This document shows, one piece after another, positions 290 through 40,890 of a stretch of 64,000 nucleotides of DNA. The notes beneath the pieces are model-generated. The model was not told the origin of the DNA and made no database searches. It saw only the letters and a program-made list of their open reading frames with translations. Within the stretch, counting starts at the first letter, position 1. Each line of letters opens with the position of its first letter. The stretch comes from Escherichia coli (GTDB lineage: Bacteria; Pseudomonadota; Gammaproteobacteria; Enterobacterales; Enterobacteriaceae). The stretch lies in assembly GCF_044324875.1 (NCBI RefSeq), contig NZ_CP172186.1; one strand, given 5' to 3'. The translations under genes and the position numbers were made by a program.

Positions 290-637
290 TTATATGCGGA
301 TTCCAGCGCGTTCCGTTCGTTTCGGGTGCTTCCAGTTGATACCTTCAAGAAGCATGGATAACTGAGCCGGAGTAAGGTGCACCTTGCCGTCACGGGTGAC
401 TGGCCAGACGAAGCGGCCCCGCTCCAGGCGTTTGGTGAAGAGGCACAGTCCGTCACTGTCAGCCCACAACACTTTTATCTGGTCACCCCGGCGTCCGCGG
501 AAGATGAACAGGTGTCCGGAGAACGGGTCATCCTTCAGGACGTTCTGAACTTTTGATGCCAGGCCGTTAAAGCCATTTCGCATATCGGTGATACCTGCAA
601 CCAGCCAGATACGCGAACCTGCAGGGAGAGATATCAT
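290..637 (-). CDS. tnpB: IS66-family accessory protein TnpB (Orf2)
   Basis: 115-aa ORF MISLPAGSRIWLVAGITDMRNGFNGLA... recognised as IS66 Orf2; stop/start overlap with upstream ORF. Confidence 0.9.
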   Translation of the reverse strand: MISLPAGSRIWLVAGITDMRNGFNGLASKVQNVLKDDPFSGHLFIFRGRRGDQIKVLWADSDGLCLFTKRLERGRFVWPVTRDGKVHLTPAQLSMLLEGINWKHPKRTERAGIRI

Positions 638-1314
638 CAGTGGCTGCTCCCTTTTATTTCGCGGATAAGTGTCTGTAATAACGCCGGCGTCAGTTTACCT
701 TTAAGCCTGAGAGTTCCGGCCGGCAGAACCAGCTCACAACACAGACTGTCGGACGGTGTATTTATCTGCTCTGGTTCCTGTGCGGGGGCCGGGATTTTAT
801 TATCCGGCTCCGGCGTTAACGTCACGGGAAGCAGTGCCGGCATATTTTTTCCGGAAGGCAGCAGGCCACCTTTCCGGTATTGATGGCGCCAGTTGAAGAG
901 CAGGTTATCGTTGATTCCGTTTTCCCGGGCGATCTGCGCCACACAGGCTCCGGGCTGCAGTGACTGCTCCACTAAGGCGATTTTAAACTCATAAGGGAAG
1001 TTGGGCCGCCGGGGACGTTTTTTTACCACGGGGGCTTCGGATATAACGGTGCTTTCAGGACGTACGACTGGTACCGTGGAAAATTGTCCGTAAAGGCAGG
1101 CATCAAGTTCCTGCTCCGACATGCCTGCGGGCAAAGGCCACGAAAGGCCAGCTCTCCGAAAGCGCACGAACATACTACAAACTGTTGATTTTGGTACACC
1201 CAGGCGACGCCCGGCCACAACCCGGGGTAAATGTTCTTCAAAGTGAAGACGTAAAGCTTCAGTGATCCAGGTCCGGTGTTTCATACGATAGTGTCCATTA
1301 AAAATGATGGACAT
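637..1314 (-). CDS. IS66-family Orf1 (TnpA)-like HTH protein; N-terminal ~95 aa resemble an IS21-family IstA N-terminus (possible in-frame fusion)
   Basis: C-terminal part (RRPNFPYEFKIALVEQS...AQIARENGINDNLLFNWRHQYRKG) has a transposase HTH pattern; N-terminal part (..GVPKSTVCSMFVRFRRAGLSWPLPAGMSEQELD) parallels the IstA N-terminus at 8063..9598 (..ASSLSWPLPADISHDTLE). Confidence 0.55.
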   Translation of the reverse strand: MSIIFNGHYRMKHRTWITEALRLHFEEHLPRVVAGRRLGVPKSTVCSMFVRFRRAGLSWPLPAGMSEQELDACLYGQFSTVPVVRPESTVISEAPVVKKRPRRPNFPYEFKIALVEQSLQPGACVAQIARENGINDNLLFNWRHQYRKGGLLPSGKNMPALLPVTLTPEPDNKIPAPAQEPEQINTPSDSLCCELVLPAGTLRLKGKLTPALLQTLIREIKGSSH

Positions 1315-1523
1315 TATTTTTGTAGAGCCGGAGGAAACAGACCAGACGGTTTAAATGAGCCGGTTACTTCCCGACAGACGACTCGGTGAAAAAAGTGGTG
1401 TGGCTGGCAATCCAGTCTGCGTCCCGGAAATGGACGATGCCGTTGAAGGACTGGCGAATGGCAATGAGCCGCTTTATTATCGAGTTCGGTGACCGCCTGG
1501 ACGGTCACTTCTGAGAAAGGCAT
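1314..1523 (-). CDS. hypothetical ORF, possibly non-coding remnant
   Basis: 69-aa ORF from track only; no recognisable motif. Confidence 0.15.
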   Translation of the reverse strand: MPFSEVTVQAVTELDNKAAHCHSPVLQRHRPFPGRRLDCQPHHFFHRVVCREVTGSFKPSGLFPPALQK

Positions 1524-1589
1524 TTACACAGAATCTTAAACAGGCTCAAGTGAAGCTAAGCACACAATCAATTCAGGTCTTTGACATCC

Positions 1590-1658
1590 TCCATCTTAAC
1601 TTCCAAAGGGTACTCCCGCCGACATAAGGCGGGAGTACCCTTTGGAAGTTAAGATGGA
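1590..1658. repeat. perfect 31-bp inverted repeat with 7-bp spacer (tccatcttaacttccaaagggtactcccgcc / gacataa / ggcgggagtaccctttggaagttaagatgga)
   Basis: Read directly; arms are exact reverse complements; related motif ttgacatcctcca occurs at about 1581 and 1759 and inverted at about 1782. Confidence 0.9.
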
Positions 1659-1801
1659 AAACCGACATAAGAACCCTCTGTTATCCTGAAACTCTTATAT
1701 TTATATAACTTGTGAAGGCGTTATGCACACAACCAATCTTCGCAAAGTCGGCGTCTCGTTGACATCCTCCACGCCCTGACGAATGTGGAGGAATGTCAAT
1801 A

Positions 1802-4075
1802 TTAATGTCCGGGCCACTCCTGTTGTTCAGTGACGTGATGTGATATTTCTTCTTTAGCTGTAGCCTCATTCTGGAGGTTTGAAGTAAATATACGCTCCAT
1901 TGTTTGTGCAACCGATGGTGGCATTTTTTCTTCCACACGTTCCTCTTCCGGACAACTCTGTGTGATATAGCATACGTGCCGTTCTTCCCGGGATGTGGTA
2001 TTGATGATGTGAACTGCCTTGTTCCACAGGCTGTTTCCCCGGGCAGAGATATCTGTATCATATTGCGGAAGCAGATCCAGCGATGTTTGTGTTTCGTTAA
2101 GCTGCTTCTGGAAGGTATCGATGATACGGTAAGGCTCTGTACGGTTTTTACGACGTTTACGGGATGGTTTTGCTGTCAGTACACCAATAATGCTGCTGAC
2201 ATGCTCCGGTGTGGGAAAACGGCGCTGCACTGTCCTGGGGACGAGACGGCGGAGACGCTCCAGGCGGGGGGCTTCAACGGAAATATAGCGGTTGATGACC
2301 ACCGGATCACTGTCGCAACTTTTCTCGCTGTCCGGAATATACACAGAGGCTGACGGCACCACATCCCCCTGGAAAACGGTAAAGAACTCACCGGCATTCA
2401 GTCTGATCAAATCCTGCACGTCGATTTTGCTTTCCATCTGGATGGTGATCTGGTTACCGTCCACCCAGGACTCACCCATCACACCATCGTGGCGCTGCAG
2501 GCTGCCCATTCTGGCCCGAGCCTCTTCACCGGCGGCATTTTTCACCGTTCTTGCCGTTTTGTCGTCACTGACAATGCGTCCGGCGAATTTGGTGCCGGCG
2601 TTCTGCATCAGTGTGGCGGTGTTGGTGGCGGAGGTCTGCCCTTCAATTCGCTCCTGATCCTGCGCCATCATTATCAGGGAAAACTCCAGTGAACGTACCT
2701 GGGTGGCCTCCACAGCAATGCGGTCTGTGTAGTAGGCACCGACTTCGTCAAGGATACAGATATAGGGGAAGCGGCCTTTGTATTTTTTTACTTCCAGGGT
2801 CTGTGCGTCTGTGCCTTCCAGGCGGTAGCCCAGGTCACGGGCGAGGATCATGCTCTGCTGGGTGATGAACATACGACCGAGTGCCGACGTGGTATGGGCT
2901 GATGTGTCCAGTGCGGGGATCATCACAATCAGAATTCGGTCGCTGTGGATACTGTCGCGAATATCGATGTCGCCGGCATCTGCCGCAAAGACGTCCCCGA
3001 AGGTTTCGGCAAAGGTTGTGAATGTTTCCGAGAACTGACCGGAGAGATAAGCATGCTGTTTACGGGGCTCCTCAGTCCAGGCTGACGGCGTTCTCACCAG
3101 TGACATATCGAATCCCGGAACGTCCTGCAGGTAATTTCTCAGTGGTGCGATGGCTTCTTCCGGCCACTGGTCATCAAGCCCACGGCAATAGAGTTTTGCC
3201 ATACCTTCCAGCGTCATATGCTCCCGTAACATCTGCAGGGACATGGTTTTTCTTTCCCGGACGCACCAGAATTTTGTGCCAAAGACCAGGGCTTTGTTCA
3301 TGGCTATCGCCCGTGACTGCCATTCACCCCCCTGAACGTTCTGGGGAAGCATGGACTGCATGGTTTCGGCGGTGAAGGCTTCGGTGCTGAATGCGAACGG
3401 GTTCCAGGTGTTTGACTGTGGGCGGGATTTTTCGCCGCTCTGAATGATTTCACTGCGGGATTTTCCGCCGTTCATGAAGTTGATGACCTCGATATCATCC
3501 TCCCGGCCAAAACGTCGGGAGAGATACCAGATTGTCCTCGTGGTATCGTTCTGTGCCTTTCCGTCAACAAAGGTAAAGCCTCTTCCCCAGCAGAGAGGGT
3601 TGAGCAGCCAGGCAAAGGTGGTTTCTGTTTTACCGCCACCGGTGGTGGAAAAAAATATGATATGCCGGGTGAGGTCATCCATGCTCAGCCAGAGCTCACG
3701 ACCGATATCGTTGATACGGCGGTAACCGACATAAAAAATCCCCCGTGCGGGGGATGTTTCATCTGCTTCATACTGAAACAGGGTGGGCCAGAAGCTGAAG
3801 AGGCTTCGCCTGACCTTTCTGTCCTGGGAGGGGTCATCAAGGCTGAGCGTCATGGGCATACGCAGGGGGCATCGCCAGCGTTGCAGCGTGAATATCACGG
3901 AGGTGACCAGGGTGAACAGCAGACAGACAGGAAGGGCCAGTGGCCATATCAGGGCCGTAATGATACTGCCGGCCAGACACAGACCAATGATGTTCAGGTT
4001 GTGCAGTGCATTCCACAGCGGGTTTCCCCAGGCCGTGCGGTGTATGAGGTCAGGATTAACGTGATGCTGGCTCAT
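1802..4075 (-). CDS. trbC: type IV coupling protein, DotL/IcmO-like (IncI1 TrbC-like)
   Basis: 757 aa; N-terminal TM segments; Walker A FFSTTGGGKTET; last gene of trbA-trbB-trbC arrangement. Confidence 0.8.
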   Translation of the reverse strand: MSQHHVNPDLIHRTAWGNPLWNALHNLNIIGLCLAGSIITALIWPLALPVCLLFTLVTSVIFTLQRWRCPLRMPMTLSLDDPSQDRKVRRSLFSFWPTLFQYEADETSPARGIFYVGYRRINDIGRELWLSMDDLTRHIIFFSTTGGGKTETTFAWLLNPLCWGRGFTFVDGKAQNDTTRTIWYLSRRFGREDDIEVINFMNGGKSRSEIIQSGEKSRPQSNTWNPFAFSTEAFTAETMQSMLPQNVQGGEWQSRAIAMNKALVFGTKFWCVRERKTMSLQMLREHMTLEGMAKLYCRGLDDQWPEEAIAPLRNYLQDVPGFDMSLVRTPSAWTEEPRKQHAYLSGQFSETFTTFAETFGDVFAADAGDIDIRDSIHSDRILIVMIPALDTSAHTTSALGRMFITQQSMILARDLGYRLEGTDAQTLEVKKYKGRFPYICILDEVGAYYTDRIAVEATQVRSLEFSLIMMAQDQERIEGQTSATNTATLMQNAGTKFAGRIVSDDKTARTVKNAAGEEARARMGSLQRHDGVMGESWVDGNQITIQMESKIDVQDLIRLNAGEFFTVFQGDVVPSASVYIPDSEKSCDSDPVVINRYISVEAPRLERLRRLVPRTVQRRFPTPEHVSSIIGVLTAKPSRKRRKNRTEPYRIIDTFQKQLNETQTSLDLLPQYDTDISARGNSLWNKAVHIINTTSREERHVCYITQSCPEEERVEEKMPPSVAQTMERIFTSNLQNEATAKEEISHHVTEQQEWPGH

Positions 4076-5174
4076 TGTGATTATCCTCGGTATCTGTGGC
4101 TTTCAGGAACAGGCTGACGGTAGTGGCGTCTTTCAGGATGCCGGACGGCAGGTGCCAGCCGGTATCGGATAACACCCATGGGGTACCGCCAAAACCGAAC
4201 TGGCGGAAAGCCTGGTTATTGACATCGATGGCAGCACGAGCAGCGGTCAGACACTTTTCATCCGGTGCAGCCGGTGCATCGCCGGTGGGTGCCATACCAC
4301 CGTCTGCGGAATACAGCTGATGCCATCCGGTCGCCCGTTTTTGTGCGTCCGGTTCACACAGCAGTGGCGCAGTCCGGTTTGTGCTGGCCTCTCCGCCGAT
4401 TACGGAGACCGGATAAATCACCACGCTGAATTCCCGGGCCAGTTGCTTAAGCGCGGGCTCCAGAAGACGGCAGTTGATGCATGCGGGGTCAAGGAAGGCG
4501 TAGAGTGTGCGTTCATGACCAGTGGAGAGATTAATGGTGAACATACCCCGGTCCGCGTTGCGTTTAAGTACAGTGGCCAGATTACGGCGGGCTTCAGCGA
4601 CCAGAGTATTTTTGTCTGCTGTTATCGCCGGGGTAGCGGATGTCTCCTGCATTTCCTGTGATGCCGGGTGAACGATTTCATTTTTCGTCTCTGACGGGGC
4701 TACTGACCGGACAATTTCCTTGTCGATGTGTAATGGTGCTGTTTCTGTTACGGATTCTGTGACAGGTACCCTGAGAGGGGAATCGCTGTCCGGTTTCAGT
4801 AAAATATATCCGGCTGTTACCGCTGTCAGAAGTGCCAGCACTAATCCTGCACCGTATATCAGCCCTCTCATGAAGCTGGTTTTCCGGGCAGGAAGTTCTG
4901 CATATGCCGCGCTCAGACAGCTGTCAATCGCGGAGAGCATTCTGCCGATGTGATGTCCGGGACGTTCAGTATCAACGGTATCAACAAGCAGTGTTTCGGT
5001 TATTTCACGAAAAGGGGTGCTGAAGGACAGGTGCATCAGCCTGTTATTACGGTTAATCAGTGCGCCCAGTTCTGTAACCGGCAGGATGGCAATAACCTCC
5101 TGACCACCGTCAGGGTACAGGGCGGTCAGGGACAGGTGTTTATTGTTCAGTGTTGCAGTGTAGCGGATGGTCAT
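4056..5174 (-). CDS. trbB: thioredoxin-fold protein with CxxC motif (TrbB-like)
   Basis: 372 aa; TM/signal-like N-terminal region; motif LDPACINCRLLEPA; position between trbA and trbC. Confidence 0.65.
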   Translation of the reverse strand: MTIRYTATLNNKHLSLTALYPDGGQEVIAILPVTELGALINRNNRLMHLSFSTPFREITETLLVDTVDTERPGHHIGRMLSAIDSCLSAAYAELPARKTSFMRGLIYGAGLVLALLTAVTAGYILLKPDSDSPLRVPVTESVTETAPLHIDKEIVRSVAPSETKNEIVHPASQEMQETSATPAITADKNTLVAEARRNLATVLKRNADRGMFTINLSTGHERTLYAFLDPACINCRLLEPALKQLAREFSVVIYPVSVIGGEASTNRTAPLLCEPDAQKRATGWHQLYSADGGMAPTGDAPAAPDEKCLTAARAAIDVNNQAFRQFGFGGTPWVLSDTGWHLPSGILKDATTVSLFLKATDTEDNHNEPASR

Positions 5175-6487
5175 TGTGCTTTTTCCTTGTCGGCGGGATG
5201 CTGTTTTTCGGTGGTTTCGGTGGTTTCGGTGGTTTCGGTGGTTTCGGTGGTTTCGGTGGTTTCGGTGGTTTCACCAGTGTCAGTGTCTTCGTCGTTATCA
5301 TGGCGGCGGGGTATCACGTCATCCGTGAGTGACCAGCGGGTCCTGATCTGACGTTTACGATCGCGATCTGGCTGAGGTTCGTCCCATATCAGGCCCAGCC
5401 CCAGCATGTCCCGTCGAAGCCCTTCAATGGCCTCTTCCACACAGGGTTCCGGGCAGGGGAGGCCGAGACGGCTGGCTTCATTTTCTGCCCGGGCAACGGC
5501 CACCACGCCGGCCCCTTCGATGAAGCCTTTTGTGGTGTTTGCCCGGTGAAGGGCATAGAAGAGCGTCCGGTCAACGCCCTTGAGCCACAGCCAGTTCGGA
5601 GGCGTCAGGCGCAAATCATGTGCGTAAAGCCAGACCAGACCGCTGCGAACGTAACGGTGCTGCCTGAGCCACTTTTGTGCGCCTTCTGTTTTGATGACCC
5701 GGATAAAGGCGTTTCTGGCCAGTGAATACACCGGCGTGCTGAAACGCCCCTGGTCCCGTTTACTTTTGAGCCTGCAGGAGAGATTGAGGTTGTTCATCAG
5801 GGCTACCGCTGCTTTCCGGTCACCGAGGAAGAACTGCAGGCCAAAGATGGCAAAGAGCGCTTTTTCATGTGGGGCCATGTCTTTCCAGCTGGTCAGTGGT
5901 TGCCCCAGTTGCGCCATGAAGCACTGGCGTGTGGACGCAACATCGAGCTGCATGTTGCGGATAAGGTTGTTCTGCTCCACAAAGGCTTCGGGGGTTAGTG
6001 CGACACGGCGCTCGGGACGTTTTTGTCCGTGGAAGAGTCTGTTGTTGTCTCCGTCAGCCAGAACGGGGGCGATCGCCGGTGACAGAGCTGAAAAAATATG
6101 GGGCAGTGTGTGGATATTCAGTGGCCTGCGGGTAAAACGGGGCTGGGCCGGATGGTGAAACCACATCCACAGAAAGCCGAATGTCATGGGAAGCAGAATC
6201 AGCCAGAGGATCCCCACTGTCCGGGACATAACATCCAGCCACTGGCTGAAAGTGATGGTTGCCGCGTTGTTAGCAGTGATGGCCAGCAGGTTGTAACGGG
6301 GGACGGCAAAGTTGTGAAAGGGCCCCCAGTCAATCATGCCCCACAGTGTGTGCAGGATCAGGCAGGAGGCGAAGACGATTTCAGGTAAAAAGCGCCAGAT
6401 GATAATCGCAAAGAGCAGGCATATGGCACCGACGATATACCATATAGCCATTGGATCTTCGGCGGCAGACGTCTGTTGGTAAGACAC
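5171..6487 (-). CDS. trbA: inner-membrane protein (TrbA-like, DotM/IcmP-like) with C-terminal (ETT)7 repeat tail
   Basis: 438 aa; several hydrophobic helices; C-terminus TGETTETTETTETTETTETTETTEKQ encoded by the 9-bp tandem repeat. Confidence 0.65.
   Translation of the reverse strand: MSYQQTSAAEDPMAIWYIVGAICLLFAIIIWRFLPEIVFASCLILHTLWGMIDWGPFHNFAVPRYNLLAITANNAATITFSQWLDVMSRTVGILWLILLPMTFGFLWMWFHHPAQPRFTRRPLNIHTLPHIFSALSPAIAPVLADGDNNRLFHGQKRPERRVALTPEAFVEQNNLIRNMQLDVASTRQCFMAQLGQPLTSWKDMAPHEKALFAIFGLQFFLGDRKAAVALMNNLNLSCRLKSKRDQGRFSTPVYSLARNAFIRVIKTEGAQKWLRQHRYVRSGLVWLYAHDLRLTPPNWLWLKGVDRTLFYALHRANTTKGFIEGAGVVAVARAENEASRLGLPCPEPCVEEAIEGLRRDMLGLGLIWDEPQPDRDRKRQIRTRWSLTDDVIPRRHDNDEDTDTGETTETTETTETTETTETTETTEKQHPADKEKAQ
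5207..5269. repeat. 7 perfect tandem copies of 9-bp unit ttcggtggt inside trbA
   Basis: Read directly from sequence; in-frame, encodes (ETT)n on minus strand. Confidence 0.95.
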
Positions 6488-8062: not shown

Positions 8063-9598
8063 TCAGTGGTAGTAGCCCGGACCACGCAGGTTTTCATGCT
8101 CTGAAGCATATGCCGGATGTTGTTCGCCCTGGCGGGATAATGGAAGCTCCAGGTTCTCCCGATGGTGACGCAGCAGATTGTCGATAAAGCGTCTGTCAGG
8201 GGCGTTATAGTGCAGGGCAACGTAACAGGCCTTTTCCAGCCGTTCCGGGCCGTATTTTTTCTGAAGTGCCAGCAGCCCCAGAACTGCACGATAAGCCAGT
8301 TCCGGATGGGGTTTTGCCTTCAGCATGGATTCAACCACCCGGCCTGTGGACGGGCCCGTACGTTTTCCCTGCTCGATCAGGCGTTCCGGTGTCCATGTCC
8401 CGTGCTGCCGGTGGCGCTCTGGCATGTGAAGCGGATTGGTTGTGTGTTTATATTCATGTGTGCTGCGCGGATGTTGCGCCACACACTGCCCCTTGTGCCA
8501 GAGCTGTACCACCGACTGCCCCGCCTTCAGTGACAGACGCTGACCGACCAGTTCGTGTGGAACGGAGTACCAGTGACGGGCATATTCAACGTGGTAGTCA
8601 GGGCCAACCTTCACAGCTTTGTATTCCGTGTATTCATAAGGTGCCAGAGGCAGCGGAGAGAGTGCTGGCGCATCCAGTATGCGGAAGCGTTCTGCACGGG
8701 TTTGATTGCCGTACCCCTTCATTGGCCGGTTATTCATGTCTGTCAGTAACTCCCTAAGGCGCGCATTCAGCGCCCTGAGCGTGTGGAAGGTTTCATTACG
8801 GATGCGGGCAAGAAGCCATCGTTCAACGATGAGGACGCCGTTTTCTGCTTTTGGTTTATCTTTAGGTTTGCGTGGTCGGGCCGGGATGATAACCGTGCCA
8901 TAGTGCTCAGCCAGTGCCTGATAACTGTCGTTGATGACAGGCTCATATCGATCGGCCTTTTTCACTGCGCTTCTGAGGTTATCGGGGATGAGCAGCTTCG
9001 GTACGCCGCCCAGGAAGGTCAGGCAACGGCTGTGGGCATTTAACCATGACATCATGTCCTGACCTTCGCACGCTTCAACGTAGGTATAGTTGGACGCCCC
9101 CATTACGGCCACGAAGATTGCCACGCGGCGTATCTCACCGGTGTCCGGATTAATAACAGGAACCGTAGGACCACAGAAGTCGATAAAAAGCTTTTCGCCG
9201 GCACGATGCTCCTGGCGCATGGAGAGACGTCGCGTTTTTTTCCACTCCCGGTAGCAACGGCAGAAGTGCGAGTATCCCATCGCTTTGTTACCCGCCTGTG
9301 CCTTGTATTCCATCCACAACAGTTGCCGCGTCACACCTGGTTTTCTCATTTCCGTATCGAAGTACAACATGTCAGGCATTACAAGCTCTGATGCAAAGGT
9401 GTCTTTGGGCGGAAAAATGAGTTTCTCCAGCGTGTCATGGGATATATCAGCAGGTAATGGCCATGACAGAGAAGAGGCTTTGAAGCGGGCAAGAACCTCA
9501 AAAACGGTTGAGGCGCTGATGTGTAACGTCAGTCCGATACAACGGTTAGTCAGCTTCTTGTCGAACTTGAGCTGAAGGATCTTAAAACAGGTTTCCAT
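8063..9598 (-). CDS. istA: IS21-family transposase IstA
   Basis: N-terminal HTH, DDE-type core; start taken at METCFKILQ with RBS (track ORF extends to 9709). Confidence 0.85.
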   Translation of the reverse strand: METCFKILQLKFDKKLTNRCIGLTLHISASTVFEVLARFKASSLSWPLPADISHDTLEKLIFPPKDTFASELVMPDMLYFDTEMRKPGVTRQLLWMEYKAQAGNKAMGYSHFCRCYREWKKTRRLSMRQEHRAGEKLFIDFCGPTVPVINPDTGEIRRVAIFVAVMGASNYTYVEACEGQDMMSWLNAHSRCLTFLGGVPKLLIPDNLRSAVKKADRYEPVINDSYQALAEHYGTVIIPARPRKPKDKPKAENGVLIVERWLLARIRNETFHTLRALNARLRELLTDMNNRPMKGYGNQTRAERFRILDAPALSPLPLAPYEYTEYKAVKVGPDYHVEYARHWYSVPHELVGQRLSLKAGQSVVQLWHKGQCVAQHPRSTHEYKHTTNPLHMPERHRQHGTWTPERLIEQGKRTGPSTGRVVESMLKAKPHPELAYRAVLGLLALQKKYGPERLEKACYVALHYNAPDRRFIDNLLRHHRENLELPLSRQGEQHPAYASEHENLRGPGYYH

Positions 9599-9702
9599 AG
9601 TGCTCCTGGATTTTCTCTTTCTGGACATTGACGTCTCCACTGGTTTAAACACGGCAATGGAGACTGTGGTGAAAAGAGTTAATTCCCGGAGTGACTGGCA
9701 GG

Positions 9703-9830
9703 ATGCCAATCAATGATCGGAAGCATGCCAAATCGTGATCGATTGTGATGCCAAACTGTGATCGGAGATGGATGCCAAATCATGATCGATTCGAATGCCA
9801 AACTGCGATCGATTCAGATGCCATTTTGCA
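9703..9830. repeat. direct repeats ATGCCAAA(T/C)NNTGATCG (at least 5 copies) at IS21-family left terminus
   Basis: Read directly; spacing about 22-27 bp; typical multi-site termini of IS21-family elements. Confidence 0.8.
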
Positions 9831-34929: not shown

Positions 34930-35280
34930 TCAGAGGTTATAGTCTTTCCAGGGGTCGATATTCCCCGGCAGATGTTCATTCACCCGATCCACGACGGCAT
35001 CACAGACCTGGTTTTCCAGGTCGCGGAGGAGTTTGTCCAGGCTGGGGAACTGCGGAAGAGTGATGCTGACGTCCTTGATGCGGGACAGGCAGGACTGCAG
35101 GGAAGAGGCGACGTCATTCTCCCGCTGTGACCATGCCTGGCTGGCTGTGCGCGCCCGCTCCCAGGCGGCTCTGCTGCCGGCTTCGGCAGCGGCCCCCGCC
35201 CGGCAGGTGGCGGCACCTGCCACCGGTGATGCCAGGGTGATGCCGGTCAGTATGACCAGCAGCGTTTTTTTCATGTTCAT
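34930..35280 (-). CDS. traL: conjugal transfer protein TraL (secreted)
   Basis: Start taken at MNMKKTLLVILTGITLASPVAGA signal peptide (track ORF extends to 35451). Confidence 0.5.
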   Translation of the reverse strand: MNMKKTLLVILTGITLASPVAGAATCRAGAAAEAGSRAAWERARTASQAWSQRENDVASSLQSCLSRIKDVSITLPQFPSLDKLLRDLENQVCDAVVDRVNEHLPGNIDPWKDYNL

Positions 35281-35296
35281 GGTCGTCCTTACCGGC

Positions 35297-38200
35297 TCAT
35301 CGGCCGGGGCTGTGAGATTGTGCCTGTTGCAGAGTTTTTTCCTGCCTGTCCTCCGCCTTTTGGCTGTCAGACCACTCTTTCCAGGTCTGCTCAAAACCCA
35401 GAGAGCGGAAAAGCTTGTCCGGCTGCTCTTCCGGTTTGTGGATGGCGGCAAACAACGGGGAGTCCTGTTGCTTCAGGTGAAACTGCATCAACTGTGGGGC
35501 AGGACGCTTAGGGCCGTCCGCATCCCGGTTGATGGCCTCACCGTAACCGGAAAACTGAAGGCCCCTGTCGGTCATGGCGTTGATGACCAGCTGACGGCTG
35601 TCCGCTGTCGGGGTGGCCAGTGCCGGGTAAAGGGTGCCGTTCAGGCGGACCACGCCCTGCATGTATTCGTCGGCGCTTTGTAACAGCAGCAGATCCAGAC
35701 GCTGGCTTTGTTTGTCGACGGAGAAGATGAGCGGCGTCAGTGTGGCGGGCGGTGTTCCGTTAAGTGGAACCCGCAGTGCCGGGTCTCGCGGTGCAGCGGC
35801 TGGCTGGCGGTCCTCCCCCAGATACAGGGTGTCGGGTACTTTGTCGGGGAGACGTACATCCTGCATGAGCTGTGGCCATCCCTGCTGTAACAGGGTCATC
35901 ATCTGGCGGAATGTGGCCGCCGGATATTCCCGGATGTACTGGCCTTCATGCGGGTTATCATGCGATACGCTGATCCCGTTACAGACCGGTTTCATGGTCC
36001 AGATATTTCGCACCCATTCCGGTTTGCCCTGTGATGAAGGTGATCTCTCCCGGGCCTGCAATGTCAGCGTGACGGGGTCGCCTTTCTGGTGGTTTTTGAC
36101 CAGTTCTTCCAGGCCTTTTCCCCAGTATTCCCGTTTGCCACTGCGGTTGGTGAGCTCCACAAAAAAGCAGCGCCCTTTTCCGGGCGCATACTCTTTTTCT
36201 CCGTAGTTTGTCAGGACGGCAGTCACACTTTCACCGGGTCTGAGTTTGCCGGGGGGCTCTTCCTCCGGTGTGTCGGGTTGCTGTGGCTGTGCACTGACAG
36301 CGACGTTTCCTGCTGACGATGACGGGGCGGCTGGTTGTTCCGGTGTGTCGGCCCGGGGGGCTTCAGCTTTTGCCGTGACCGGCGCTTCCGGATGCGGTGT
36401 TTCAGCCGTACTGCCTGCAGTTTGCTCTGTTTCTGCTTTCGGTGACACAGGGGGGGCCGGTTGTGCCATTGTTGTCTCTTCCGGTGACAGGCGGTTGAGT
36501 TCCGGCGTGGGTCTGTGGGTGACGATGGCATCATGCGCCATCCCTTTCTCCTGGCGGAGTTTTTCCAGCGCAGCCCTCTGGGTCGGGAGTTTCATGCGAA
36601 CCTTGATGTCGTATTCGACAATCAGTTGCATGGCTTTTTGTTTAAAGGCATCACTGCCGGTCAGCTCGATAACGCCGCCATAGAAATTGGTGGCCACAGC
36701 AAGGGCAGCCAGAACCTTTTTGTCATCCGCGCTGGCGCCATCCACCATTTCCAGACGGTTGAGTTTATCCAGGAATGCCGGTTCGCCGTCGACGCGGTAG
36801 AGCGCAGTATTGTCGGGTAACTCTTCGTGCTCAAGATTTTTAATAATCTCGTCCAGGTTGTGCCGCTGCGGACTGTCGGGACGGCGGGGCGCAAAGATAA
36901 TCGTGTCCGGTTCCGTTGACGATGTGTCTTCCGGGCTGTTTTCCGGTGGTGATGGTGGTGCGACCTCCTCTGTTGCTGTTTCAGCCTCCGTGGGCTTTTT
37001 CTCCTGAATAACGGAAGGTTCTGAGGTGCGTGATTTCCCACCGGTCAGAAAACGGCGCAGACGGCTGAAAAGCGATGGCGTTTCAGGGTGGGCTGCTTCA
37101 TTCGCTGTGCTGGTCTCAGTGGCAGACACAGGACGCTCTTCCTGCAGTTTATCTTCAGCCGTCGGTTCAGCGGTGGCCTGCCGGACTGGCTGAGTTTCTG
37201 CAGGTTCAGAAGGTGAGGCTGTTTCTGCTGTGCCGGTGTTGTGAACAGTGGCAGCAACCGTGGCATCGGCATTGAGCTCCTCAGGCGGTGCGTCACGGTT
37301 GTTATCGGGGACGGCAGAGGCACTCTTTTCACTGGTATCCGTTGCAGACAGAACATCCTCTTCCTGCGGTTTATTTTCTGCCGTTGCTTCAGGGGTTGCC
37401 TGCTGAACAGGCTGAGTCCCGGCAGGTTCAGAAGGTGAGGCTGTTTCTGTTGTATCGGTGTGGTGAGCCGTGGTCATCACAGTGGCATCAGCGTTGAGGT
37501 CTTCCGCAAATGCGCTCCAGTCGTCAGCGCTGGCCATGGAGACCTGCAGTTGTTCTTCAGTCTGCGTTGTGGTGGTGTGCTGTGTCCCGGTCGCGTCGGA
37601 GACGGAGGTTTCCGGTGTGTCGTCACCTGGGGAGAGCTCTTCTGCCTGTACGCTCTGGTTGTCAGCGGTGGTGGCAGAGGCATTTTTTTCACCGGTATCA
37701 GCGGCAGGTATAACGCTCTCCTGAGGTTTGTCTTCTGCTGTTGGTTCAGGGGAGGACTTCTGAACAGGCTGAATCTCTGCAGGTTCAGGAAGCGTTCCTG
37801 TTTCTGCTGTGTTGGTGTTGTGAGCGGTGTCTGTACCTGTGGCGTCTGTATTGAGGTCTTCCTGGTCGCCAGCGGTAGCCGCAGAGGTATTCTCTGTGCC
37901 GGTATCAGCGGCAGACGCAATATTCTCCAGTGGTTTATCCGGGGATAACGTCTCCGTAGTTACTGACTGCAGGGATGCATAGGCGGCATAGTCATCTTCA
38001 TATGCCTGGTTTTCTGTCTCTTCAGTGTGGATGTCATAAGGCGTATCCGGTGTCGCCAGCACCGTTTCCGGGGCTGTGCTCTGTTTGTTTTCAGGGGACA
38101 TTTGTGGCTTCTCATCTTTTACCGGTGTGAATATCAGGTTGCCGATCACGACAGCTTCACGGTGGTCGGCAGTGTCACTGTTGGGTGTGGGGATACCGAT

Positions 38201-39328
38201 ATGTTTTAACTGTGCGTTCATGACATGCTGAAAGTCGTCCCGTCCCCGGCTGGCGTCCAGGTCATTGAAATCGGTCAGTCCCTGTGCTTTTTCCTCCTCC
38301 GTAAAGGCCGGAATAATGACTTCGCCATTCGTGACTTCTGCGGCTTTTGTTGCACTAAAAACCCCCTTGTTAATTTCCCGTTGATGATCGTTGTCGGCAC
38401 AGAAGACAAAGGGGCTGTCAGTCCAGATTTGGCGGGCATTTTCTGCCACGGCAATCATATTGCCGGCATCAACTGTCATCAGAACCGGAAGGCCGGTGGC
38501 TTCGTGCAGGGAGGCGGCAGTAGCGTAACCTTCCGCAAATAACAGGGGACGGCCATTTTCCGGGGTTCCGAAGGTGAACCAGTTGCCGGTTTTCTCGGAG
38601 TCTTTCAGAATGCGGGCATCCTTCCCGCCGGTGACCGGAATACGCTGGTACGAACGTATTTCCCCCCGGCCGTTGCTGAAGGGAATAACCAGCTCATTTT
38701 TATTGTTCAGCCGCACGCCAGGCGCGGCCCGGATGCCCTTGCGCGTCAGGTATTCATGTGCTGTTGCCTGTGGCAACCCGTTAATATAGGAGCGGGCATA
38801 CCGGGCCTGTTTGTTGTACTGTTGCTGCAGTTTACGTGCGTTATCATCGCGCTGTTGCTGAGCGAATGCCCGCAGATGCAGTCTGGCCAGAGGATCGTGT
38901 TGTTCTCCGCCGGAAAATACCCAGTTTGTGGGACTGTCATCGGCGCTCCGGTAGTCGCGGTACCAGCCAGCGGGGCGCCCATCAAGATAGGCTTTGTATG
39001 CGCCACTTTTGGCCCCTTTTTTGTCATCCCGGGTGGCGACTCTGTGTATGGCGCCATCCATCTGTGGCAATCCCTGAATAACCAGCCCGGCGTTTTCCAG
39101 GACCTGAGCAAATTCGGTGACCGGATCGCCGGCATCCATCGACAGTTCCTGCGGCCGGGGTAACCAGCGCTCCAGCAGAGAAAGTTCGGTACCTGCCCGG
39201 GCATACCAGAGTTTTTTTTCTGGATCCCATGCGACAGCTTTGCGGCCATTTAACGGGGGTACTGCATTTTTTACGGCTTCTGTCTCCTCAGGCGGGACAG
39301 CAAGCCAGGTACGATATCTGGACTTCAT
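35297..39328 (-). CDS. sog: DNA primase Sog (plasmid primase, suppressor of dnaG)
   Basis: 1343 aa; primase motif LLFAEGYATAASLHEATGLPVLMTVDAGNM; long acidic Thr/Pro/Glu-rich repetitive linker. Confidence 0.8.
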   Translation of the reverse strand: MKSRYRTWLAVPPEETEAVKNAVPPLNGRKAVAWDPEKKLWYARAGTELSLLERWLPRPQELSMDAGDPVTEFAQVLENAGLVIQGLPQMDGAIHRVATRDDKKGAKSGAYKAYLDGRPAGWYRDYRSADDSPTNWVFSGGEQHDPLARLHLRAFAQQQRDDNARKLQQQYNKQARYARSYINGLPQATAHEYLTRKGIRAAPGVRLNNKNELVIPFSNGRGEIRSYQRIPVTGGKDARILKDSEKTGNWFTFGTPENGRPLLFAEGYATAASLHEATGLPVLMTVDAGNMIAVAENARQIWTDSPFVFCADNDHQREINKGVFSATKAAEVTNGEVIIPAFTEEEKAQGLTDFNDLDASRGRDDFQHVMNAQLKHIGIPTPNSDTADHREAVVIGNLIFTPVKDEKPQMSPENKQSTAPETVLATPDTPYDIHTEETENQAYEDDYAAYASLQSVTTETLSPDKPLENIASAADTGTENTSAATAGDQEDLNTDATGTDTAHNTNTAETGTLPEPAEIQPVQKSSPEPTAEDKPQESVIPAADTGEKNASATTADNQSVQAEELSPGDDTPETSVSDATGTQHTTTTQTEEQLQVSMASADDWSAFAEDLNADATVMTTAHHTDTTETASPSEPAGTQPVQQATPEATAENKPQEEDVLSATDTSEKSASAVPDNNRDAPPEELNADATVAATVHNTGTAETASPSEPAETQPVRQATAEPTAEDKLQEERPVSATETSTANEAAHPETPSLFSRLRRFLTGGKSRTSEPSVIQEKKPTEAETATEEVAPPSPPENSPEDTSSTEPDTIIFAPRRPDSPQRHNLDEIIKNLEHEELPDNTALYRVDGEPAFLDKLNRLEMVDGASADDKKVLAALAVATNFYGGVIELTGSDAFKQKAMQLIVEYDIKVRMKLPTQRAALEKLRQEKGMAHDAIVTHRPTPELNRLSPEETTMAQPAPPVSPKAETEQTAGSTAETPHPEAPVTAKAEAPRADTPEQPAAPSSSAGNVAVSAQPQQPDTPEEEPPGKLRPGESVTAVLTNYGEKEYAPGKGRCFFVELTNRSGKREYWGKGLEELVKNHQKGDPVTLTLQARERSPSSQGKPEWVRNIWTMKPVCNGISVSHDNPHEGQYIREYPAATFRQMMTLLQQGWPQLMQDVRLPDKVPDTLYLGEDRQPAAAPRDPALRVPLNGTPPATLTPLIFSVDKQSQRLDLLLLQSADEYMQGVVRLNGTLYPALATPTADSRQLVINAMTDRGLQFSGYGEAINRDADGPKRPAPQLMQFHLKQQDSPLFAAIHKPEEQPDKLFRSLGFEQTWKEWSDSQKAEDRQEKTLQQAQSHSPGR
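37080..37862. repeat. three imperfect in-frame tandem repeats (about 354, 216 and 210 bp) within sog
   Basis: Units start with E[DE]LN[AT]DAT..TAH..T..ETASPSEPAETQPVQQATPE at about 37862, 37508 and 37292 (minus strand). Confidence 0.8.
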
Positions 39329-39391
39329 GTCGTTCTCCGGGGATTAAAGATGAGGGCGTTGTGATACGCCGGGATGATGGACAAAAGAGGG

Positions 39392-39682
39392 CTATTCTGG
39401 TCCGTGCCATTCACGGGGTAATTCTGTGCGGTGTCGGTACCACCAGGGACGTCCTGATGCCTGCTTACCCTGAAGCAGGCTGTACAGACGTATACAGAGG
39501 GTGCGGACTGTCCAGCCGGAATATCCCAGGAGCATAAAAAACAGCAGAATGCCGCTGCACACCCAGAATGTCGTTTTTGACGGATACGGAAACAACAGCA
39601 GGTAAATCATGGTAAACGGCAGGGGGACACCATAAATGTTGAGCGGTGGAGTTACATCCCGCCAGAAGCCTTCGCGTTTCAT
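39392..39682 (-). CDS. traK: conjugal transfer membrane protein TraK
   Basis: 96 aa, two TM helices; directly downstream of traJ. Confidence 0.55.
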   Translation of the reverse strand: MKREGFWRDVTPPLNIYGVPLPFTMIYLLLFPYPSKTTFWVCSGILLFFMLLGYSGWTVRTLCIRLYSLLQGKQASGRPWWYRHRTELPREWHGPE

Positions 39683-40890
39683 CGGGGGAACTCTCCGGCC
39701 GGGATGAAGAGCGCTGCTTCTGATTTCTCAATGCGGTCGTTCTGATACATGGTCAGAACCTGATCCCTTATCCGCCGTTTTTCCTGACGAATGATTTCGT
39801 CAATGTAATGTCCCCATGTTGCATGGGATTGTCCGGAGAGCGTATTGCGCAGTTCGTCAGTCATGACGATGTATTCCCGGACAGCCTGCCTGCCGCCGTC
39901 ATTTGTTCTGACCAGTACCTGCACCAGAATGAACTGTACGAGGGAAAGCGTGGCTGCAGCCATCGAATCCCTGATTTCAGGAGGAAACAATCCCAGCAGG
40001 CGGGCAAAGGTTTCTCCGGGTGATTTTGTGTGCATGGTGCCGATACAAAAGTGTCCGGTATTACCCGCCTGGACTGCGGCATCTGCTGTTTCATAATCCC
40101 TGATTTCACCGATACCAATGATGTCCGGATTACGGCGAACGGCAGAGCGAAGTCCTGCAGCAAAACTTTCCACATCGCGCCCGATTTCGGCCTGATGGGG
40201 AGGCAGAAGGTCATTCTCTCCGCCCAGAATGTATTCCACCGGATCTTCATAGGTCACTATTTTGCGATCGGGGAAATTTTTCAGAATGTGGCGATACAGT
40301 GCCGCCGCCAGTGTGGATTTCCCGGAGCCGGTTTCTCCGCAGATGAAGCCCAGGCCGGTTTTTCTGAGCATGGCATCCAGCAGATCCGGTTCAATATTCA
40401 TAGTGAGGATGTCCGGAATATCTGACGGGATCACCCGCATGGTGACGGAAATGGCTTTTTCTTCTGTTGCCGATGTTCCCTGTATCAGGTGGCAGCGCAG
40501 GCGAACACGCTGACCTCGTTGCAGGCCATAGCGACCGGAGGCATCTCCGCTGACCTGAATGGTACGATCCACGGGATGACCTGACAGAACCCGGGGAAGA
40601 ACCTCCCGCCCAAACAGCTCATCACTCAGTGCCATCATGATGGAGGACGGAAGGGGATTTACGGATGAGCGAACCCGCCGTCCAAAGCGACTGACGGATA
40701 CCGGTGAACCGCCGGTCAGATCAATATCACTGACGCGGTGGCGGGCACACCAGGCAAAAAAATGGCGAAACTCTTCTGCCGTAAAACGGGAGAAGGGGAA
40801 GGTACCGAAGTCATCTGGTGATATCATTTTTCTCTCCTTCGGTGCTGACAAGAGGGCGCCAGCGCGATTTCTGCAGCGTAAATTCAGCAT
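39679..40890 (-). CDS. traJ: secretion ATPase TraJ (PilT/VirB11/DotB-like)
   Basis: Walker A GETGSGKST; about 380-400 aa; likely start at MISPDD about 40827. Confidence 0.75.
   Translation of the reverse strand: MLNLRCRNRAGALLSAPKERKMISPDDFGTFPFSRFTAEEFRHFFAWCARHRVSDIDLTGGSPVSVSRFGRRVRSSVNPLPSSIMMALSDELFGREVLPRVLSGHPVDRTIQVSGDASGRYGLQRGQRVRLRCHLIQGTSATEEKAISVTMRVIPSDIPDILTMNIEPDLLDAMLRKTGLGFICGETGSGKSTLAAALYRHILKNFPDRKIVTYEDPVEYILGGENDLLPPHQAEIGRDVESFAAGLRSAVRRNPDIIGIGEIRDYETADAAVQAGNTGHFCIGTMHTKSPGETFARLLGLFPPEIRDSMAAATLSLVQFILVQVLVRTNDGGRQAVREYIVMTDELRNTLSGQSHATWGHYIDEIIRQEKRRIRDQVLTMYQNDRIEKSEAALFIPAGEFPR

Follow-up and report, generated by a model that had tools for sequence, protein, structure and literature searches.

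Imperfect in-frame repeats in the linker of a sog conjugative primase gene of IncK2/Z plasmids: whole-unit variation and predicted disorder

Can the linker of a conjugative primase be built of tandem repeats, and does its length vary by loss or gain of whole units? The question is raised by the sog gene of the window (the whole stretch of 64,000 nt of Escherichia coli DNA that was analysed), in which the first-pass annotation proposed three consecutive in-frame units forming a disordered spacer of variable length. The layout of the gene and of its product is as follows.

35297..39328, minus strand: sog gene, stop codon included, 1343 aa, SogL-type conjugative DNA primase (ORF list)
39158..39313, minus strand: DUF5710 N-terminal domain, aa 6-57 (Pfam PF18974, E 1.2e-8)
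38237..38539, minus strand: Toprim primase domain, aa 264-364 (Pfam PF13362 Toprim_3, 28.2 bits, cut-off 27.2)
38516-38533, minus strand: EGYATA motif, aa 266-271 (translation)
38099..38101, minus strand: putative internal in-frame SogS start, M410 (alignment with M412 of IncI-type SogL)
36866..38113, minus strand: whole predicted disordered acidic linker, aa 406-821 (AlphaFold2 pLDDT, charge-hydropathy, composition)
36548..36805, minus strand: LPD7 domain, aa 842-927, folded in the model (Pfam PF18821, E 2e-11; pLDDT ~90)
36239..36493, minus strand: second Pro/Thr/Ala-rich linker, aa 946-1030 (composition)
35300..36238, minus strand: conserved C-terminal region, aa 1031-1343 (homology hits; bioRxiv 10.1101/726927)

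The gene matches the CDS WP_112038045.1 of the E. coli plasmid pLH50-c-A (IncK2/Z, MPF_I) at 100% identity. The gene order on this plasmid is traJ, a 96-aa traK-like gene, sog, a traL-like gene, DotI/TraM, DotH/TraN and traO, which places sog within the MPF_I transfer operon, ahead of traL-traM-traN-traO. SogL proteins of IncI-type plasmids, among them the annotated one of pN11, share 64-66% protein identity with the sog product over 71% of its length, and the linker is the part of the product that does not align with them. The EGYATA motif was read from the translation (FAEGYATAAS, aa 264-273), and the C-terminal region is common to the C-termini of MOBQ4 relaxases (bioRxiv 10.1101/726927). 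The Toprim_3 domain with its EGYATA motif, the homology to SogL outside the linker and the neighbouring traK and traL confirm the naming of the gene as a sog primase. As judged from sequence, they support the assignment of its product as a Sog-type (I-complex) conjugative primase. This identity is masked by the automatic names "LPD7 domain-containing protein" and "DUF5710 domain-containing protein". An NCBIfam search with the product found no family, a PDB sequence search no relative, and an Rfam scan of 35000-39600 no match. The domain map and the SogL alignment agree in placing the repeats, as had been proposed, after the N-terminal primase domain and ahead of the C-terminal LPD7/transfer region.

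The sizes of IncI-type SogL and SogS (1255 and 844 aa) imply a SogS start at M412 (PMC6112013), which aligns with M410 of the window protein. All 9 alleles examined have ATG or GTG at this position, and a weak Shine-Dalgarno-like GAGAAG precedes M410. The repeat linker probably also makes up the N-terminal third of SogS, the short isoform, with M410 as its putative start.

The repeats themselves were delimited by direct-repeat searches, alignment and profile HMM.

37718..37939, minus strand: repeat unit 1, aa 464-537, 74 aa (222 bp) (direct repeats; HMM E 3.8e-36)
37358..37717, minus strand: repeat unit 2, long form, aa 538-657, 120 aa (360 bp) (direct repeats, alignment, HMM)
37422..37449, minus strand: 28-bp tract CAGAAACAGCCTCACCTTCTGAACCTGC, unit 2 copy, identical to the unit 3 tract
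37136..37357, minus strand: repeat unit 3, aa 658-731, 74 aa (222 bp) (direct repeats; HMM E 1.5e-40)
37200..37227, minus strand: 28-bp tract CAGAAACAGCCTCACCTTCTGAACCTGC, unit 3 copy, identical to the unit 2 tract
37079..37135, minus strand: possible partial fourth unit, aa 732-750 (19 aa), RPVSATETSTANEAAHPET (marginal similarity)

The direct-repeat search identified a family of 144 nt with members at 37140, 37362 and 37719, which are 76-79% identical, and a pair of 222 nt in which 37083-37304 matches 37305-37526 at 73% identity. Successive copies start 222 and 357/360 nt apart, and all repeats are in frame with the minus-strand ORF 35297..39328. Units are 71-76% identical to each other at the DNA level and 52-62% at the protein level. 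Tandem Repeats Finder reported no repeats over 35000-40000 at a minimum score of 30, because divergence between the unit copies is too great and indels set them apart. As blastp of the linker against itself gave nothing off the diagonal, Smith-Waterman scores compared to 1000 composition-preserving shuffles were used in its place: unit-unit scores are 162-180, versus 42-49 +/- 7 after shuffling (z 15-20, 0/1000). The repeats are thus real and situated where they had been reported, at 37080-37862, except that the start of the array has to be moved ~77 bp towards the 5' end of the gene (to window position 37939, aa 464), an extension which takes in the N-terminal half of unit 1. Unit lengths are indeed multiples of three, and the lengths first given, 354, 216 and 210 bp, become 357, 222 and ~204 bp in the same register; the natural repeat unit is 74 aa (222 bp). 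The longest exact match between units, and the sole long exact tract common to two of them, is the 28-bp tract of units 2 and 3. The consensus of 23 distinct core copies, EdLNaDat...t.HnT.taET...sEPAe.qPVqqat.EpTAEdKpqE, agrees with the motif originally described (E[DE]LN[AT]DAT..TAH), and about 20 of 49 core positions are kept in at least 90% of the copies.

Other parts of the linkers were compared with the unit in the same manner. Similarity of aa 732-750 to the N-terminal half of unit 3 is marginal (z 3.7, reached by 8 of 2000 shuffles). Unit 2 is interrupted by a 45-46-aa insertion (aa 562-606) ending in DDWSAFAEDL; the idea that this insertion is a decayed extra unit finds no support (z of at most 1.4), yet 40 nt of it align at 70% in the repeat search. 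The flanking parts of the linker show no significant similarity to the unit on the shuffle test, and the second Pro/Thr-rich linker (aa 946-1030) gives z < 0.

The distribution of unit number was then analyzed among plasmids. Alleles with two cores encode 1269 and 1281 aa, those with three cores 1335-1353 aa, and those with four cores 1458 and 1463 aa; a third, independent two-core allele occurs in an L007-like background. The sog alleles of IncK2/Z (I-complex) plasmids are mosaic and differ by whole in-frame blocks of 222 or 360 bp, all natural copy-number changes being in register with the frame kept. In CP070395, a 222-bp deletion falls exactly on the 28-bp tract common to units 2 and 3; in OQ534118, a 360-bp gain corresponds to an out-of-register recombinant between a window-like and an L005-like allele. 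The four-unit protein is carried by 35 contigs and the two-unit proteins by 2-3 contigs each, and these variants are not one-off artefacts. They are rare: about 7 of the ~444 PLSDB plasmids with the repeat region have a number of units other than three, the specific four-unit junction being present in 5 PLSDB records and the two-unit junction in 1. A length of exactly 1343 aa is found in 104 of the 120 best database clusters (94-100% identity). The linker is thus variable in length by whole units, as anticipated, with two, three or four copies, but variation is infrequent and three units are by far the commonest state, so that the sog array is not hypervariable. Such predominance may stem from selection favouring a certain length, and need not be neutral. 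Plasmids with two-, three- or four-unit alleles are all typed as conjugative from their gene content.

A further expectation of the first-pass annotation, collapse of the array in short-read assemblies, is unlikely for the three-unit allele of the window, whose units share at most 28 exact bp; each exact sequence of the 1343-aa form is represented by dozens of contigs or even by more than 100, many of them from the Logan and ENA assembly sources. The four-unit allele has a 98-bp exact repeat, and for this allele only is collapse conceivable. Among the partial proteins of the four-unit cluster, inspected for breaks at the repeats that would hint at faulty assembly, breakpoints are scattered, only 4 of 10 lying in or near the array. 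Since alleles differ by whole in-frame blocks, changes in sog length should not be read as truncation or misassembly, a caution which applies to plasmid typing and annotation.

The proposal that the array is disordered is supported by prediction. In the AlphaFold2 model pLDDT is below 50 over aa 406-751 and 763-809; it is ~30 over aa 406-751, the array included, without secondary structure over the units, and ~90 over the adjacent LPD7 in the same model. The mean hydropathy of the repeat region (0.39) is below the charge-hydropathy boundary (0.46-0.47), on the disordered side, and the primase, LPD7 and C-terminal regions are all above it. The 287-aa array (aa 464-750) contains 58 D+E versus 10 K+R (net charge -48) and 2 aromatic residues only; the whole linker (aa 406-821) has a net charge of -61 and a pI of 4.05. 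We therefore regard the repeat array as predicted to be intrinsically disordered. Between orthologues the repeats have a dN/dS of 0.52-0.55, compared with 0.08-0.16 for the primase and 0.07-0.13 for LPD7; between paralogous units the ratio is 0.39-0.45, with dS of ~0.5-0.65. The array is under relaxed, not absent, purifying selection. The cores are not freely drifting, given their ~20 conserved positions and a dN/dS below 1, and a sequence-specific role, for example as a short binding motif, is therefore possible.

The first-pass annotation pointed to Sog of the IncI1 plasmids R64 and ColIb-P9 for comparison. SogL/SogS of these plasmids occupy the same slot directly upstream of traL in an MPF_I (Dot/Icm-like) tra operon, and share with the window protein the Toprim domain with EGYATA, LPD7, the C-terminal region (64-66% over 71%), the in-frame ATG at the SogS start position and an acidic interdomain linker. 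The repeats are absent there: the IncI-type linker is ~90 aa shorter, cannot be aligned and has no such DNA or protein repeats. No repeats were found either in the Citrobacter homologue, which like IncI-type SogL has an acidic linker of other length and sequence. On IncI-type pN11 nuc is directly upstream of sogL, a place taken here by traK. Among 1.84 billion representative proteins there were 14 matches to the unit; Sog sequences account for the two longest, and the others are short fragments, most of which match the unit-core HMM. On these comparisons the repeat-built linker appears to be lineage-specific, and full-text literature searches found no account of repeats in the sog linker. Pri of pCTX-M3 (IncM) and TraC of RP4 (IncP) are also conjugative Toprim primases, with similarity to the sog product only in the N-terminal ~380 aa (31-37% identity). 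TraC yields two products in the same frame and accompanies the DNA. Pri may also yield a shorter in-frame product (PMC6112013).

The reading that we consider probable is that of a disordered acidic tether, lengthened by unit duplication and reshaped by occasional recombination. The N-terminal Toprim primase and the C-terminal LPD7/transfer region would be linked by a Thr/Ala/Glu/Pro-rich acidic tether. A 74-aa (222-bp) unit would have been duplicated in tandem within the IncK2/Z lineage, which takes in some IncI-gamma/K1-typed plasmids, and the copies would then have diverged to ~75% DNA identity under relaxed but present purifying selection. Whole units may occasionally be removed or added by homologous recombination out of register or by slippage where short tracts are identical, and the frame survives since unit lengths are all multiples of three. 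Since plasmids with two, three and four units are all typed conjugative, the exact length is probably not critical. We infer that the array acts mainly as a flexible DNA-repelling spacer, unfolded for transport, and not via a specific fold. Pro/Thr-rich linkers of glycoside hydrolases and the Pro-rich spacer of TonB are repeat-built, length-polymorphic disordered linkers, which resemble the array in low complexity, absence of predicted structure, in-frame gain and loss of units and relaxed constraint. The array differs from them in its long (74-aa), strongly acidic units with a conserved core, and in its host protein, a type IV secretion substrate. What transposon data on IncI1 and I-complex plasmids show is limited to a requirement in transfer for the entire SogS-coding part (PMC4288162, PMC10286972). 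Insertions in this part would be polar on the C-terminal domain.

Several other explanations were weighed against this one. That there are no true repeats, the periodicity coming from biased Thr/Pro/Glu/Ala composition, would fit the blank Tandem Repeats Finder result and the biased composition of the region, but it has practically no chance of being correct and is refuted by unit scores 15-20 SD above composition-preserving shuffles (0/1000), by 73-79% DNA identity over 144-222 nt and by natural indels that are exact in-register multiples of the unit. The differences in copy number among plasmids, always with the frame kept, might suggest a fast-switching contingency locus adapting transfer or evading recipient defences; such loci are made of short near-perfect slippage-prone repeats, whereas the units here measure 222-360 bp, are only 71-76% identical and share a single 28-bp exact tract. 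The constancy of the 1343-aa length among the best clusters and the few PLSDB records with four-unit or two-unit junctions also make such switching extremely unlikely. Scarcely more credible, and very unlikely in our opinion, is a DNA-mimicking or defence-titrating decoy arriving in the recipient with the incoming strand. Sog proteins do enter the recipient (PMC6112013), the negative charge density of the array is very high (net -48 in 287 aa), and proteins with LPD7 fall into the Pfam class of "large polyvalent protein-associated" domains. The known DNA mimics ArdA and Ocr, however, are folded proteins with ordered charge arrays, unlike the array, which is predicted to be disordered; a defence-related family was not detected, and the idea comes by inference only.

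Instead of a passive spacer, the units could also be short binding motifs in a multivalent array, for example internal signals, acidic and Glu-rich, for recruitment by TrbA, the DotM-like protein of the coupling complex, in which version copy number would tune the efficiency of Sog export to the recipient. E.LN.D, H.T, ET, EPA, PV and E.TAE.K..E are kept in the 23 copies despite a dS of ~0.5-0.65, which argues for such an array, and the presence of two-, three- and four-unit alleles on plasmids all typed conjugative argues against it; we hold it to be unlikely. As to TrbA, the window encodes this protein (5171-6487) with a DotM_C domain (E 1.6e-47), and the I-type system is known to have Sog among its protein substrates (summarised in PMC6112013). 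In Legionella Dot/Icm, DotM binds acidic Glu-rich effector peptides (PMC5802825), and the E-block signals resemble the array in their acidic Glu-rich character, their type IVB substrate and their DotM-like receptor. These signals are short and C-terminal, whereas the array is internal (aa 464-750 of 1343), 287 aa long and Thr/Ala-rich, and ends ~590 residues before the C-terminus; on position, it does not qualify as an E-block signal. Sog of IncI1 has no such units and is transferred all the same. The conserved acidic cores might be internal multivalent docking sites for TrbA, unit number setting the amount of Sog loaded and exported per transferred strand, which we judge decidedly improbable; if true, it would mean that a conjugation system has a type IVB secretion signal which is internal and encoded by repeats. 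The natural series of two-, three- and four-unit alleles is a ready allelic set for separating a passive spacer from a signal-bearing linker.

The variation of the sog repeats is real but ordinary, and leaves current understanding unchallenged. Two antisense or alternative-frame ORFs cross the repeats, at 37460-37948 (plus strand) and 37477-37920 (minus strand), and are treated here as by-products of the stop-poor repeat.

The repeats lie in a single open reading frame of the minus strand, whose features, with those of the repeat region that it contains, are as follows.

Features of the sog gene and its repeat region (coordinates of the window; aa of Sog)
35297..39328, minus strand: sog, single long ORF of 1343 aa containing the whole repeat array
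aa 6-57: DUF5710 (Pfam)
aa 264-364: Toprim domain (Pfam)
aa 266-271: EGYATA primase motif, read from the translation
37970-37996 (aa 445-453): helix-prone island
aa 464-537: repeat unit 1, 74 aa
aa 538-657: repeat unit 2, 120 aa, adjoining units 1 and 3
aa 658-731: repeat unit 3, 74 aa
aa 732-750: 19-aa tail with weak likeness to the unit start
37046-37072 (aa 753-761): helix-prone island
aa 842-927: LPD7 (Pfam)

The Pfam domains, the EGYATA motif and a tblastn match to IncI-type plasmids, including one annotated sogL (64-66% identity across 71% of Sog), together identify the gene by homology as encoding the Sog primase of an I-complex plasmid, in keeping with the assumption of the first-pass annotation. 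The middle section of the protein cannot be aligned to IncI-type SogL. The entire gene is 100% identical to that of the E. coli plasmid pLH50-c-A (NZ_CP100501.1), typed IncK2/Z, MOBP and MPF_I, where the gene order is traJ, a 96-aa traK-like gene, sog, then traL-, traM(DotI)-, traN(DotH)- and traO-like genes. The end of the protein (aa 1031-1343, window 35300-36238) shares 36-42% identity with the C-terminal portion of MobQ (MOBQ4) relaxases from mobilisable plasmids of ~4 kb, a likeness remarked before (bioRxiv 10.1101/726927), and the two may possibly have in common a domain for transfer or recruitment.

A repeat search of the window returned a family of 144 nt with members at 37140, 37362 and 37719 (76-79% identity) and a 222-nt pair (37083-37304 versus 37305-37526, 73% identity), the spacings being 222 and 357/360 nt. 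Unit 2 is an ordinary unit carrying within it an insertion of 45-46 aa, which has no recognisable likeness to the units. Smith-Waterman scores between units (162-180) stand 15-20 SD over 1000 composition-preserving shuffles, none of which equalled them; the similarity is homology, beyond biased composition. Identity between units is 71-76% for DNA and 52-62% for protein; Tandem Repeats Finder did not detect them. The repeats reported at first pass in the sog linker are thus borne out, with amended dimensions: the sizes of 354, 216 and 210 bp become 357, 222 and ~204 bp in that register, and the array starts ~77 bp closer to the 5' end of the gene. About 20 of the 49 core positions are kept in ≥90% of the 23 distinct copies (consensus EdLNaDat...t.HnT.taET...sEPAe.qPVqqat.EpTAEdKpqE). 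No published description of the sog repeats was found by full-text literature search; the phenomenon is of a familiar kind, and its biological interest is low.

The disorder proposed earlier for this linker is also predicted here. The array contains 58 Asp+Glu versus 10 Lys+Arg (net charge -48, pI 4.05), 17% Thr, 17% Ala and only 2 aromatic residues among 287; a charge-hydropathy plot places the linker among disordered sequences and the primase, LPD7 and C-terminal parts among folded ones. In an AlphaFold2 model of aa 378-946, built on a 13-sequence alignment, all units lack secondary structure and score a pLDDT of ~30, versus ~90 for LPD7. The sole structured islands of the modelled linker are two short helices, DDYAAYASL (aa 445-453) and LFSRLRRFL (aa 753-761). 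Two acidic-aromatic motifs of the linker, YEDDYAAYASL and DDWSAFAEDL (aa 602-611), resemble sequences (YEDYSAYQEL and KDWREFEAEL) in the otherwise unalignable IncI-type linker; such motifs and helix islands are possible short linear motifs.

Constraint on the repeats is relaxed, not absent: dN/dS is 0.39-0.45 among paralogous units and, among orthologous alleles, 0.52-0.55 in the repeat region versus 0.08-0.16 in the primase domain and 0.07-0.13 in LPD7. The core HMM counts two copies in alleles of 1269 and 1281 aa, three in those of 1335-1353 aa and four in those of 1458 and 1463 aa; another two-copy allele has a separate sequence background. In CP070395 the 222-bp loss falls exactly on the 28-bp tract CAGAAACAGCCTCACCTTCTGAACCTGC, the only exact match of at least 17 bp between units; the 72-aa loss in CP033633 is in register, at SEPA; and the 360 bp gained by OQ534118 reflect out-of-register recombination between a window-like allele and one like the related allele L005. 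Such junctions are consistent with diverged repeats having undergone slippage or unequal homologous recombination, through which length would change, recombination between co-resident plasmids being among the possible routes. The gene is also mosaic: over aa 1-460 OQ534118 hardly differs from the window (dS 0.004), but from aa 831 on dS is 0.2-0.4, and CP063494 has roughly the reverse pattern (nearly identical from aa 946 on), which indicates recombination within sog between I-complex plasmids. The related alleles L004, L005, L009 and L010 carry at ~aa 540-565 a 12-aa micro-duplication, ADT[RG]EE[NK]AS.., absent from the window and from allele L014, which adds a smaller, second tier of in-frame variation in length.

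The linker is therefore length-variable, as had been suggested, with alleles of two, three and four units and in-register junctions, and its variability is low. Among the 120 top-ranking database clusters, at 94-100% identity, 104 have a length of exactly 1343 aa. About 444 PLSDB plasmids, mainly from E. coli and Shigella, have the repeat region at ≥80% nucleotide identity; 5 of these records contain the specific four-unit junction and 1 the CP070395 two-unit junction. The four-unit protein is supported by 35 contigs and the two-unit proteins by 2-3 each, and in-frame indels of 2, 3 and 12 aa are also present among alleles. The locus is a slowly evolving length polymorphism and no switch. Collapse in short-read assemblies, also proposed at first pass, is not supported for the window allele, whose longest exact repeat is only 28 bp; it is conceivable only for the four-unit allele, in which an exact repeat spans 98 bp and whose contig breaks are scattered. 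That remark excepted, the original observation is confirmed and its interpretation supported.

The comparison with IncI sog that had been called for was run: SogL of IncI type (1254 aa) also has an acidic, poorly conserved linker, and the repeats are absent. The same holds for a Citrobacter homologue (1499 aa), which has in addition an insert unalignable to other linkers; neither contains DNA repeats of at least 40 nt or a match to the unit HMM. The Citrobacter gene is an unannotated ORF at 541-5097 of the Citrobacter sp. BIDMC108 plasmid record (NZ_CP073009.1), and its extra insertion, placed after the primase domain, looks non-repetitive. Among 1.84 billion representative proteins the array had only 14 matches, the two longest being Sog sequences and the others short fragments, most of which fit the unit-core HMM. 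Given these absences and so few matches, the duplication is a lineage-specific elaboration of a generally present linker.

R64 produces SogL (1255 aa) and, by internal translation initiation, SogS (844 aa) (PMC6112013), which places the SogS start at residue 412. Met412 of IncI-type SogL aligns with Met410 of the window Sog (ATG 38099-38101), and ATG or GTG occupies this position in 9 of 9 alleles examined. The repeats would thus form the N-terminal third of the short isoform, if it is made.

The best-supported reading is that the linker is a length-tolerant, disordered, acidic tether, which would link the primase with the C-terminal part of Sog, necessary for transfer according to transposon studies (PMC4288162, PMC10286972), and whose length unequal recombination would occasionally reset. 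The principal rival takes the conserved cores to be binding motifs, in the most interesting version docking on the DotM-like TrbA, whose gene also lies in the window (DotM_C, E 1.6e-47); by analogy, Legionella DotM binds acidic Glu-rich signals (PMC5802825). Against this version, those signals are C-terminal, IncI1 Sog lacks the units, and unit number differs among plasmids typed conjugative.

The window holds other repeats. At 5206-5272, within the minus-strand ORF 5171-6487, a perfect 9-bp tandem repeat of 7.4 copies, TTTCGGTGG, is translated as (TTE)7 close to the C-terminal end of the DotM_C-bearing TrbA-like protein and gives a second transfer protein an acidic Thr/Glu tract. Since its copies are exact and keep the reading frame, this repeat is a stronger candidate than the sog units for slippage-driven length change. 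Imperfect 23/47-bp tandem repeats (73-81% matches) at 9701-9823, at the edge of ORF 8063-9709, could be iteron-like or binding-site repeats.
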